Shown here: positions 54,662 to 61,551 of the stretch, piece after piece
Position numbering within the stretch: the stretch's first letter is position 1
How the letters are laid out: the number at the start of each line of letters is the position of its first letter
NCBI GenBank assembly: GCA_963833095.1
Contig: CAWHWQ010000005.1
Location: 352,001-416,000 of the forward strand
Direction: 5' to 3'
DNA length: 64,000 bases
Origin: Vulcanimicrobiota bacterium
GTDB lineage: Bacteria; Vulcanimicrobiota; Vulcanimicrobiia; Vulcanimicrobiales; Vulcanimicrobiaceae
The notes under the pieces: generated by a model
Databases searched by the model: none
Seen by the model: only the letters and a program-made list of their open reading frames with translations
What the model was told of the DNA's origin: nothing
Position numbers and translations under genes: made by a program

Positions 54662-54831
54662 AGTGGCCCACGATATCCCAGCGAACGGGGAACCCAAAGG
54701 GCAGCCGCATGCGGAGCGCATCTACATCGTGGCTCTTCGCTCGCAAAGCGCTGCTTTTGTCGCTCATCGCTCCTTGTATCTGCGCCGCGCATGCGGCTGC
54801 GGCGCCGTTCGTTGGGACATTACAGGCCACT
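54662..54831. other. ~170-nt rod-like imperfect inverted repeat filling an intergenic region (candidate structured RNA)
   Basis: Nested pairs AGTGGCC/GGCCACT, TCCCAGCGAACGG/CCGTTCGTTGGGA, GCAGCCGCATGCG/CGCATGCGGCTGC, GCGCA/TGCGC, TACA/TGTA. Confidence 0.7.
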
Positions 54832-58126: not shown

Positions 58127-59158
58127 GTGCGTTTTGTATTCGCTGCTTGGCTTGCTACTCGCGCTTTGATCGTTGCGATGTTTCTTGCTGCGAGCACGCA
58201 TCCGCTCGCGAGCGCCGGCAATTGGGACGGCGCGTGGTATGGATCGATCGCGCAGCACGGATATGGGTACGCGCAGATCGGCGCGCAGCGCGACATTGCA
58301 TTCTTCCCGCTTTTTCCCATGCTCGCGTCGCTGCTATTGCGCATCGGCATCGGATGGCCCCTCGCGGGCCTGCTCGTCAACAACGCGGCATTCCTCGGGG
58401 CACTCATTCTGCTCCACCGGATCGCGAGTAAACGATGGAACGCCGCGACGGCGCGCTGGTGCGTGGCATTTGCATGCGCTTGCCCACTATCTCTGTTCGC
58501 AAGCGTGGCCTATCGCGAGGGTGTCTATCTGTTTTTCAGCGCGCTCGCGCTATGGTTCGCGTTGCGATCGCAACGGCTCGCAAGCGGCCTGGCAGCTGCG
58601 GCCGCGAGCGCGACTAGCGCGATCGGCATCGCACTCGGAGGCGCGCTGATCATCGACGCCGTCCTGCATCGTCGCAGCGCGCGCGACATTGCGTCCGCAG
58701 CACTCGCATTCGCCGGTATCGGCGCCTTTGTACTCTTTTGCTATCTTCGTTTCGGAGACGCGCTCGCGTTTGCGAACGCCGAACATGGCTGGCGAACCGG
58801 CGGGGTTGACTTGAGCGCATGGCTTCGCGTGCTCGAAAGCCTGCGCCGTTGGGAGGGTCTGCGCGCGAATCTCATGGTAATCGTGCTCGTGCCGCTGGCG
58901 GCGGTCGCGATCGTCGTGCAGCGCAGGGCGCTGGGAGCGTTGCTCGCGCTCTACGGGATGTTAGCGATCGTCCTAATCATGCTTGGCGGCGAACCGATCT
59001 CGGCAGATCGTTACGCCTTTGCCGTGGTCCCGGTCCTCTTGGCGTATGGCCGCATTTTGCAGCGCATCCCGATCATAGGAGCGGCTGTGTTAGCGGCTTC
59101 GCTCTGCCTGCTCGCCTACGACGCGGTCCAATTCGCCCAATTCCACTGGGTCGCGTAG
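58127..59158 (+). CDS. GT-C membrane mannosyltransferase (PIG-V-like)
   Basis: 'WDG.WY..IA..GY', 'AFFPLFP', 'P.SLF..AY.E', 'RY'. Confidence 0.85.
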   Translation: MRFVFAAWLATRALIVAMFLAASTHPLASAGNWDGAWYGSIAQHGYGYAQIGAQRDIAFFPLFPMLASLLLRIGIGWPLAGLLVNNAAFLGALILLHRIASKRWNAATARWCVAFACACPLSLFASVAYREGVYLFFSALALWFALRSQRLASGLAAAAASATSAIGIALGGALIIDAVLHRRSARDIASAALAFAGIGAFVLFCYLRFGDALAFANAEHGWRTGGVDLSAWLRVLESLRRWEGLRANLMVIVLVPLAAVAIVVQRRALGALLALYGMLAIVLIMLGGEPISADRYAFAVVPVLLAYGRILQRIPIIGAAVLAASLCLLAYDAVQFAQFHWVA

Positions 59159-60598
59159 CCCGGCACCGATGCGGCGCGCGCCTTCGCGCGCTGTCGCGAT
59201 ATCGACGTGTCCAAACGAAAGGCGCAGCGCGGGCGGGCCACTGCGCGTTGGATAAAATGGCTCGGCCGGCATCACCAGTACTCCTTCGCGCGCGCATGCA
59301 TCGAAGGCCGCCTGCGTCGAGATGCGCGACGGAAGCGCGAGCCACACGTTGACACCCGCAGCCGGCGGGCGCACTTGCGCCCACGGGACATACGTCGTGA
59401 GCGCGTCGACGAACGCATCGCGGCGTTCTCGGTAGAGCGCGCGCGAGCTGCGCAGGTGACGTGAATATGCAGGGGAGTTCATGAAGCGCCACAACGCACG
59501 CTGCGTCAAGGTCGACGTAAACACATCGGCGCGCACCTTAGCGATTTCAAGCGCTTCGGCGATCGTGCCACGTGCATAGAGATACCCGATTCGGAGCGCC
59601 GGAAAGATGGATTTGGAGAGACTTTCCATCACGATCACGCGACCGTCGGTGTCGAAAGCAGCGAGCGGCTGCGGTGCGGCCGCGTCGTAGGTAACTTGCC
59701 ATCCCGTCTGATCTTCTAACACCATCACGTCATAGCGGCGCGCGAGCGCAACGATTTGCTTTGCGCGACGCGCCGGCAAAACGGCGCCGGTCGGATTCTG
59801 CGCGATTGGATTGACGTAAAATAAGCGCGGACGATATTCGGCGAAGACACGCTCGACATCGTCGACACGCACGCCGTCGTCATCGCTGCGTACCTCGACA
59901 TAGGCAACTCCGCGCGCGTCGAAGACGCCTAGTGTCCCCGAATACGTGGGGCTTTCGCTCGCCACCACACTGCGATCGTCGAGCAGAACCGTCGCGACCA
60001 AGTCGGCCGCTTGTTGCGCGCCACTGCAGACGATCATGTCGCTTGCACTCGCGCGTACGCCCCGTCCGCGTAAGAGCTCGGCGAGCGTTTCACACAGGTC
60101 GGGATCGCCGGTTGAAGAGCGGTATTGCATCGCCTCGGGCGGATCGTCGAGCAACGTGCGATGCACCGCGCGGCCGAAGTCTTGCAGCGGAAAAGTCTCA
60201 GGCGCCGGATGGCCGGTAGCAAGCGAGATCGCCCCCGGATGCGTCGCACGCGTGAGCTGCTCCATCACGCCGTCAAGACGCTGCGCGCGCGCGAAGCGCG
60301 AGACGTCGGGTTCCCAGCGACGCGCGAACGGCGATTCGCTCGCCGGCGGCGGCGCGACGAAGGTTCCTTTGCCCACGCGCGAGATGACGCGCCCGCGTGC
60401 GGCGAGCAGTTCGTAGGCTTGCGACACCGTCACGAGCGCGCAGCCCAGCTCGTGGGCCAGATCGCGCATGGCCGGCAAGCGAGCTCCAGACGCAAGTGCG
60501 CCGGACTCGATCGCCTGCGCGAACTGATCGGCTAGTTGTACGTAGAGGGGACGGCCGTCTCGCGCGTCGAGGGTTAGGGAAGCTCGGGAGAAGTCCAT
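59090..60598 (-). CDS. MocR/GabR family regulator (GntR wHTH + PLP aminotransferase domain)
   Basis: 'PLYVQLAD...G.RLP..R.LA..LG....TV.QAY..L...G...GKGTFV'; 'QNPTG'; 'SLSKSIFPALRIG'. The 3' end overlaps the convergent gene by 69 nt. Confidence 0.92.
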   Translation of the reverse strand: MDFSRASLTLDARDGRPLYVQLADQFAQAIESGALASGARLPAMRDLAHELGCALVTVSQAYELLAARGRVISRVGKGTFVAPPPASESPFARRWEPDVSRFARAQRLDGVMEQLTRATHPGAISLATGHPAPETFPLQDFGRAVHRTLLDDPPEAMQYRSSTGDPDLCETLAELLRGRGVRASASDMIVCSGAQQAADLVATVLLDDRSVVASESPTYSGTLGVFDARGVAYVEVRSDDDGVRVDDVERVFAEYRPRLFYVNPIAQNPTGAVLPARRAKQIVALARRYDVMVLEDQTGWQVTYDAAAPQPLAAFDTDGRVIVMESLSKSIFPALRIGYLYARGTIAEALEIAKVRADVFTSTLTQRALWRFMNSPAYSRHLRSSRALYRERRDAFVDALTTYVPWAQVRPPAAGVNVWLALPSRISTQAAFDACAREGVLVMPAEPFYPTRSGPPALRLSFGHVDIATAREGARRIGAGLRDPVELGELDRVVGEQAERSR

Positions 60599-60855
60599 GC
60601 GCCGATCGTTATGGCCCCGATGGTTGCAGATGCGAGGAGTCGGTGAGGAAGCATAGCCGCGGTGTTCTGTGACCGAACCGACGACGACGCAGATGCACCA
60701 TCGCGGCCATAACCCGAAGGGCGAGGACATTCCCTGTGCAACTCATCGTTGCATCCTCGGTCACAGAGCGCTGTGCTATGCTCCCTCGGCTGCGCCTTGA
60801 TTCGCACCGGAAATGCTCCTCGCGATCGGCACAGCGACTTCTTCCGAGCTTCCCT
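60576..60855. ncRNA. Candidate ~280-nt structured RNA/element with closing stem and two hairpins with mutually complementary loops; family not recognised
   Basis: Outer IR 60576-60608/60823-60855 (29/33 match); helix A 60608-60644/60677-60713; helix C 60721-60756/60788-60823; loop 60645-60676 is complementary to loop 60757-60787. Confidence 0.6.
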
Positions 60856-60858
60856 CGG

Positions 60859-61551
60859 TCAACGTTTGTCGAGACGATAGCCGATGCCACGTACGCTCGA
60901 AATCTCGAGCGGAGCATCAACCTCGATCAGCTTCTTTCGCAGCGCCGCGACATGGACGTCGACGACGCGCGTGGGAACGCCCGACGTATCATTCCATACG
61001 TGCTCGAGGATCTGCGCGCGCGTAAGCAACCGCCCTTCGGCTTCGCCCAAAAACCACAAGAGGCGAAATTCGAGCGCCGTCAGAGGAACGTTCGTGGTGT
61101 TGTTGAGCAGCGTGTGAAAATCGCGGTCGAGCTGCGCACTGCCAAGAGCGAGGATATTGTTGCCCTCTTTCTTTGCCGTCGACTTCTCGCGGCGGCGCAA
61201 GAACGAGGCGATGCGCGCAACCAGCTCGTTACCGGAAAAGGGCTTGGTAATGTAGTCGTCCGCTCCAAGACCAAGGCCAAGCAGAATATCCTGTTCGCGC
61301 GAATGGCCGCTGACCATGAGGATGAAGCAATTGTTCGAGTTGGAGAGCGACGTGCAGACGTCAAGCCCGGAGATATCGGGCAGCCCGACGTCAAGCACGA
61401 CGACGTCGGGCTTATAGGTATCGGCAAGCTCGAGGCCCTCGGCGCCGCTAGAGGTTACCTTCACCTCGTAACCGGCGCGCTCGAGAACCGTCTGTTCTAA
61501 GCGGGCGACGTCCTCGTCGTCCTCGATAACCAACATCCGGGCTAGCGCCAC
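60859..61551 (-). CDS. OmpR/PhoB family response regulator (no cognate kinase adjacent)
   Basis: 'LVIEDD', 'VLDVGLP', 'GADDYITKPF', 'LT.LEF.LL', 'VDVHV..LRKK', 'VRGIGY'. Confidence 0.94.
   Translation of the reverse strand: MALARMLVIEDDEDVARLEQTVLERAGYEVKVTSSGAEGLELADTYKPDVVVLDVGLPDISGLDVCTSLSNSNNCFILMVSGHSREQDILLGLGLGADDYITKPFSGNELVARIASFLRRREKSTAKKEGNNILALGSAQLDRDFHTLLNNTTNVPLTALEFRLLWFLGEAEGRLLTRAQILEHVWNDTSGVPTRVVDVHVAALRKKLIEVDAPLEISSVRGIGYRLDKR

Follow-up and report, generated by a model that had tools for sequence, protein, structure and literature searches.

A 278-bp gene-less MITE with two inverted G·A-ladder hairpins at the junction of a response-regulator gene and a MocR-type gene

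The structured element at positions 60576-60855 of the window (the 64,000-nt stretch of a Vulcanimicrobiota contig analyzed here) is a 278-bp gene-less MITE that landed between two genes, and is neither a kissing-loop ncRNA nor a switch of MocR. The best overall explanation, which we hold with good confidence, is a non-autonomous DNA transposon (type II MITE) in which two insertion-sequence ends are fused back to back. Sequence features expected of a type II MITE were found throughout: terminal inverted repeats (TIRs), an empty site together with a target duplication, a short length without a transposase gene, dispersed copies, and an autonomous element with the same ends. An earlier note, made from the sequence alone, had named a structured miniature mobile element as one of its readings, and the dispersed copies, target duplication and empty sites bear this reading out.

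Results

The element is built in the order TIR - arm - mini-hairpin - arm - TIR. It is preceded by a left target copy, TA at 60575-60576 as read from the sequence (TTAG at 60574-60577 if the duplication is 4 bp), and begins with the left TIR, which forms one side of the closing stem (60577-60608, + strand) and matches IS5-family ends over its outer 12-13 bp. Arm A (60609-60712, + strand) is a variable stem of ~20 bp topped by a tandem G·A ladder, which shows covariation and matches the arm covariance model with 102.8 bits on the + strand only. After a central CCC-NNN-GGG mini-hairpin of 9 bp (60713-60721) comes arm C (60722-60822, - strand), a second copy of the same G·A-ladder hairpin that aligns with arm A and matches the model with 89.7 bits on the - strand only. 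The right TIR (60823-60854, - strand) completes the closing stem and is followed by the right target copy (60855-60856), which is TC in the window and TA in the orthologous copy of genome G014. The TIRs pair at 29/33 positions, as the earlier note had described for an outer stem (60576-60608 with 60823-60855) containing the MocR ATG, and helices A and C also pair as described there. The ORF list of the window contains none of at least 80 aa that falls entirely within the 278 bp.

Both neighboring genes are read on the - strand: an OmpR-type response regulator upstream (60859-61551; Pfam PF00072 and PF00486), whose stop lies 3 nt before the element, and a MocR-type gene with GntR and aminotransferase class I/II domains downstream (59090-60598; PF00392 and PF00155). 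Comparison with congeners revealed that this junction measures 6 nt in empty alleles and 286 nt in filled alleles, thus the insert amounts to 280 nt, which corresponds either to 278 bp plus a TA duplication or to 276 bp plus a 4-bp duplication. The element is absent from the orthologous junction in 14 of 17 congeners. The filled 286-nt junction is found in the window genome and in G014, where TA is retained on both sides of the element; G003 has a partial copy at the start of a contig, and G015 only a 28-nt remnant. The comparison shows that the element inserted at a TA-centred site where the response-regulator stop meets the MocR start.

The element supplies an ATG (60596-60598, - strand) in frame with the MocR-type gene, which adds MDFSRAS before the conserved L-x-L-D. 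This gain is a side effect in one lineage, and is not the reason for conservation of the structure. MocR has no consistent ATG, GTG or TTG near the conserved start in the empty alleles; its frame in 14 congeners starts with G(T/C/G)T overlapping the regulator stop, with an invariant 6-nt gap, and five order-level relatives have a conserved ACG thereafter, some with a purine-rich box upstream. The starts in the empty alleles suggest near-cognate initiation or translational coupling. At the same junction in G015 (L053), the 28-nt element-end remnant has kept the MocR frame and is preceded by a TTG overlapping the regulator stop.

Both strands of the element fold at about -160 kcal/mol, and the folds stood up against shuffled controls, with z-scores of -10.0 (+) and -8.7 (-) and 0 of 200 shuffles as good on either strand. 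The earlier note had described two 31-nt loops (60645-60676 and 60757-60787) as reverse complements, and this complementarity was found, with five substitutions (four of them G-U on the + strand) and one gap. The loops are not open, however, since tandem G·A pairs fold each of them on itself on the relevant strand (+ for A, - for C), where it forms the upper part of its hairpin. Read on these strands, arms A and C align as one motif and the element is two-fold symmetric. The top of each arm runs stem - GA/GA - 2 bp - GA/GA - G·T, C-G, A-T, T·C, A-T - variable tip; below this top lie one or two further G·A steps.

At the four inner ladder positions, GA is kept in 109, 113, 103 and 110 of 120 arms from 60 non-redundant elements; the 2-bp spacer between the GA/GA steps swaps between GC, CG and AT, and a fixed G·U wobble is retained in 98 of the 120 arms. 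Arm covariation in two alignments was 0.461 versus 0.166 and 0.552 versus 0.208, with neither value reached by any of 500 shuffles, which ignore relatedness; slid controls were also far lower. Single mismatches on the ladder strand of the arm stems comprise 59 G·T and 30 A·C, versus 53 and 54 in the closing stem, thus indicating that the arms are selected as single-strand folds and that the closing stem is a duplex-like TIR. The analysis shows that each arm is a strand-specific hairpin maintained by compensatory change. The selection on a + strand RNA proposed in the earlier note accordingly survives as + strand selection on arm A, but arm C is selected on the - strand, and the closing stem shows selection on neither strand. 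When RNA parameters are used, 170 of 180 arms fold better on the ladder strand than on the complementary one. In 68 of 90 elements the central loop has the form GNA or, on the complement, TNC; as it is a stable DNA triloop on one strand and a cUNCGg RNA loop on the other, it does not discriminate between a DNA and an RNA role.

Two loci, L156 and L176, have extra hairpin sequences inserted in the tip of one arm (presumably REP-like at L156), an insertion that the tip tolerates. A resemblance of the arm to K-turns, hammerheads and attC sites, judged by eye, was dropped. The earlier note had recognized no known family, and the Rfam scan agrees: no match at gathering was found in the window, where one chance match (E 5.6) lies outside the element, and a scan of 20 related loci gave tmRNA only.

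The arm covariance model gave 19 matches at 13 loci in the window genome, six of them two-armed and seven single, and matched 26 of 41 genomes with the window genome included. A BLAST comparison with the window genome and its relatives, which the earlier note had proposed, found relatives of the element elsewhere in the window genome and copies in 17 of the 41 genomes, again including it. Two Verrucomicrobiota-titled genomes yielded at least 148 and at least 150 arms among 150 scored, a Planctomycetota-titled genome 52, and five further genomes 6-44, with one of these five not counted as a separate group. A 20-base arm pattern matched at least 119 loci in the genome collection; most of the 80 titled matches listed are Verrucomicrobiota or Eremiobacterota, with single Planctomycetota, Nitrospinota, Bacteroidota and Myxococcota titles among them. 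This range follows the records' own titles, some of which are apparently wrong, with L081 (no stem; chance) and L132 (doubtful title) left out. Viral contigs gave 0 matches to the arm pattern, and plasmids gave no match for two element types and chance matches only for the TIR. Lengths were compared in 130 bounded elements, a set gathered via the arm, so that arm-less relatives are under-counted: 100 measure 255-300 bp, 21 are shorter than 215 bp and 4 longer than 300 bp. These counts show a dispersed family that was recently amplified in some genomes.

Copies in the window genome mostly sit between a stop codon and the next start, and copies were found at stop/start junctions in operons, for example pyrB-pyrC, pyrD-pyrF, gmhA-rfaE and accB-accC (gene names from translations). 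The scan of 100 of the 142 flanking ORFs at 80 loci revealed no recurring neighbor gene. The biotin carboxylase gene after accB seems to start at ATT, both in the window genome (G000:C1 near 449783, - strand) and in two congeners (L010 and L013). Arms almost always lie ~30 bp inside a TIR. The one-armed copies of the window genome have the ladder on the mRNA strand twice and on the opposite strand three times. A second family member in the window (54663-54830), which is one-armed and has GTG..CAC (IS630-like) ends, carries a variant-type arm on the - strand (54702-54801) and also lies between a stop and the next ATG. A terminator-like hairpin comes after a lone arm at G000:C5:550601-550697, for which no enclosing TIR was found. 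The same ends also occur as TIR-only mini palindromes of 22-44 bp at L186, L220:2182-2225, L274:1507-1531 and L287:322-343; these could be either deletion scars or minimal MITEs.

The TIR consensus GGGAAGCTCTGAA, from which the window copy departs by two changes, is common to the MITE family and to both IS5 copies identified, L268 and L271. A search across 301 genomes of the phylum recovered the TIR pattern in 49 of them, a tally that takes in the unpublished G254 and G206, on which no other result rests. At L268 and L271, which come from two genomes of the window organism's bacterial family, GGGAAGCTCTGAA/GGAAGCTCTGAA ends lie 1.1-1.2 kb apart around an IS5 transposase of 316-321 aa (NF033581; 341 and 316 bits), and CTAG flanks both elements on both sides. 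A tblastn search of the window genome (81% complete) found no relative of this transposase. Among the congeners, DUF4096 and DUF772 were each found in 0 of 17; DDE_Tnp_1 gave no match in G015 and one sub-threshold match in the window genome, where no IS630 was found either. Flanks of the GGGAAGCTCTGAA-type MITEs show an exact TA in 10 of 27 cases and an exact 4-bp repeat in 3 of 27, and an exact 4-bp repeat flanks 4 of 7 copies in G015. Related autonomous elements show a 4-bp YTAR duplication, and the available text of PMC5009759 gives YTAR as the duplication of E. coli IS5.

Two further end types were found. MITEs with GAGAC/GAGCC ends, in which TNA is duplicated in 17 of 25, share this end with two truncated IS5 (NF033580) copies in G041. 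The GTG..CAC ends of a further set of MITEs, to which the second copy in the window belongs, resemble those of IS630 elements of the same bacterial family (the IS630 tally, 7/121, includes the unpublished G295, whose loci went unused). The arm core thus recurs in MITEs with three end types, corresponding to two IS5 groups and IS630. No arms were found in the end-matching IS5 or IS630 elements, which indicates that the arm is not needed for transposition; it is missing in L268, L271 and 7 viral relatives, and the interior of the MITE is not derived from the NF033581 IS.

Arms do flank a transposase gene in another group. In G322, an IS5 transposase gene lies within TIRs between two arms that are spaced 900 bp apart, and a copy with an internal deletion also exists. 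Among 80 metagenome loci, some of which have short flanks, 21 of the 22 with at least 49% identity to the arm-flanked transposase have an arm (13 on both sides), versus 0 of 58 below 49% identity, and the arm is always oriented + before the gene and - after it. These counts and the fixed geometry indicate that the arm is a subterminal part of one IS5 clade (NF033580; L296, L331-L346), whose members come from gut-metagenome contigs and one Bacteroidota-titled genome. They measure 1.1-1.26 kb and show TNA repeats. Long open frames are present in several of them, and many others are disrupted. An early ATG is absent from most of the transposase frames, and most arms are followed by GGTAA. TAnnTTTG is a Bacteroidota-type promoter box; an outward box of this kind in the armed IS ends is not claimed, since no more than a few of 26 ends contain an exact match. 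The window element has the geometry of the armed IS5, with a 9-bp hairpin in place of the gene.

Discussion

Type II MITEs such as Correia, QMITE and Chunjie, as far as the available text of PMC10969869 describes them, resemble the window family in being shorter than 500 bp, in having TIRs and a target duplication but no transposase, in their dispersed intergenic copies with deletion derivatives, in their stable fold, and in a similarity to the parent IS that is confined to the TIR. In contrast to these, the window family has an interior that is better conserved than the TIR and GC-rich rather than AT-rich, and that consists of a symmetric, strand-specific pair of G·A-ladder hairpins across three end types and several phyla. 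The IS5 subgroup of L268 and L271 (NF033581) shares the GGGAAGCTCTGAA/GGAAGCTCTGAA TIR and a CTAG-type target, but those elements carry a transposase and no arms, and the MITE flanks fit TA more often than 4 bp. The armed IS5 elements (NF033580) share the order TIR - arm(+) ... arm(-) - TIR and the core GA-NN-GA-G·T-CG-AT; they differ in length, in the transposase gene between the arms, in the TNA duplication, and in their TIR and lower arm. The arm's recurrence across end types and phyla is the unusual part of an otherwise known kind of element.

The nearest printed remark found is a sentence on REP dimers of Halothiobacillus neapolitanus in the accessible part of PMC3733652, where CGTC REP dimers lie within a 41-bp palindrome. 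What is shared is an inverted hairpin pair enclosed by an outer palindrome; the palindrome consensus, which starts with GGGaaGCTT-GAAAa, is close to the window TIR. However, the Halothiobacillus units are CGTC-tagged REPs of 20-40 bp with 8-bp stems, whereas the window arms are ~100 nt long, untagged (Ssn motif in 1 of 130 elements) and built on tandem G·A pairs; the repeat is not called a MITE in that part of the paper. For some IS elements, the portion of PMC3196728 at hand predicts hairpins within the first 50 bp. Within the literature covered, to whose scope subscription journals and ISfinder did not belong, no description of a G·A-ladder end module was found.

Judged from sequence comparison, an IS5 DDE transposase acting in trans very probably moved the element, with copies persisting at targets that overlap a stop or start codon because no gene would be broken there. 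The arm would be a cis-acting end module that folds when single-stranded or when extruded as a cruciform, with the G·A ladder forming on the strand that runs 5′ to 3′ inward from each end, and a host protein would bind the ladder and thereby favor transposition or retention. To such a DNA-level end module, bound by a putative host protein, we give slightly less than an even chance. It is favored because the arms are symmetric to the ends, are kept in gene-less MITEs, are shared by three transposase groups, and occur in one-armed copies both sense (twice) and antisense (three times); a host reader is suggested by the arm being common to the three transposase groups.

The structure could act in RNA instead. 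The earlier note had proposed a large ncRNA or a two-state switch in which a 31-bp loop-loop helix controls MocR translation. This helix is indeed predicted on the + strand of the window copy (0.93 paired), whose minimum is a rod that uses it; the minimum of the - strand, the mRNA of the response regulator and MocR, is a Y with both arms, and the Y and rod folds of this mRNA strand lie ~7 kcal/mol apart (-195.6 versus -188.9 kcal/mol). Yet the two loops of an element do not covary: they match as well between elements as within one (0.700 versus 0.701; 943 of 2000 permutations reach the observed value), and in 92 of the 112 cases in which two arms differ, pairing is retained within each arm. 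The rod fold is missing on both strands in 50 of 69 non-redundant elements, many copies are one-armed, as the 21 of 130 below 215 bp illustrate, and the element is missing at MocR in most congeners. The MocR ATG (60598-60596, - strand) lies where the outer stem opens into a 2x2 internal loop, and is paired alike in both folds. A 31-bp helix is about 9 nm long, or three turns, and the end of a closed hairpin cannot accommodate it; helices A and C therefore cannot coexist with the full loop-loop helix. The covariation, rod-fold and empty-site results refute the ncRNA or switch at family level, and we regard it as extremely improbable; the complementarity of the loops is a by-product, because the same module is present twice in inverted orientation. 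A role of the arms in read-through transcripts of the same MITE ranks close behind the DNA-level role, as a lesser but serious possibility. A transcript entering from either side would meet the TIR and a G·A ladder first, and in armed IS elements the fold or a bound protein could limit how much read-through reaches the transposase gene; in MITEs, operons would keep working with the insert closed as a compact domain between stop and start. Such a role is consistent with the copies at stop/start junctions inside operons, with the better folding of the ladder strand with RNA parameters, the cUNCGg loop and the fixed G·U wobble, and also with the transposase-damping end hairpins that the available part of PMC3196728 describes for IS200 and predicts for several Amoebophilus elements. 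Against it, the ladder of the one-armed window-genome copies is no more frequent on the mRNA strand than on the opposite one (two versus three), and the arm is retained in MITEs, where there is no transposase gene to be silenced. A scan of 60400-61000 revealed neither a promoter-like nor a terminator-like site, and the central loop is a DNA-stable GNA triloop on its other strand.

Two further readings concern the origin of the arm. RAYT/Ssn-type nucleases read strand-specific mismatched hairpins, and the arm could be a selfish, REP-like hairpin that such a single-strand nuclease spreads and that has repeatedly colonized IS ends and TIR-only minis as inverted dimers. The same core inside three unrelated end types, the TIR-only minis as possible targets, and the TIR-less arm at C5:550601 of the window genome would all fit, as would the Halothiobacillus REP dimers, enclosed by a palindrome whose end is similar (PMC3733652, available part), and the kind of hairpin that such nucleases are described as reading in the part of PMC11893778 at hand. 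We nevertheless consider this improbable, as the arms almost always keep a fixed distance of ~30 bp inside the TIR, and a tagged 20-50-nt hairpin of the CGTC/GTAG REP or SRM pattern (taken from the same part of PMC11893778) matches only 1 of 130 elements. The arm-flanked genes, where found, are DDE transposases, and no HUH or GIY-YIG gene was found in 100 flanking ORFs (cut-off 1e-15, ORFs of at least 100 aa, by which small nucleases could be missed). A little less probable again is that the arms are functionless, a decayed palindrome kept by hairpin-templated repair whose mismatches let the inverted repeat escape deletion. Deletion derivatives are indeed common, and replicating DNA holds imperfect palindromes more stably according to the accessible text of PMC3733652, but the mismatches are specifically G·A, on one strand and at fixed spacing, across phyla and end types, and neighboring pairs swap; neutral repair would have no strand bias, yet G·T exceeds A·C by 59 to 30 in the arms.

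The DNA-level end module bound by a host protein thus remains our preferred reading of the arm. Its widest form, which we put forward only tentatively and consider rather doubtful, is that the arm may be a portable single-strand module, read by a conserved host protein and independently acquired at both ends by IS5 and IS630 elements and MITEs in several phyla, where it would promote transposition or harmless operon insertion. For the genomes concerned, the family is a practical matter: with arm copies that can number 150 or more in one genome, it breaks assemblies, supplies new start codons, as at MocR, and will go on being mistaken for ncRNAs or riboswitches. MITE interiors are usually seen as decayed filler; here the interior is conserved and the ends are exchanged. 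The ends of DDE elements are thought to be read as duplex DNA, and a covarying, non-canonical, strand-specific hairpin at both ends of such elements points to a single-stranded step or a host factor, for which the arm offers a short, mutable test substrate. If the proposal is true, it would mean a host-factor docking site of transposon ends that is defined by structure and not by duplex sequence.
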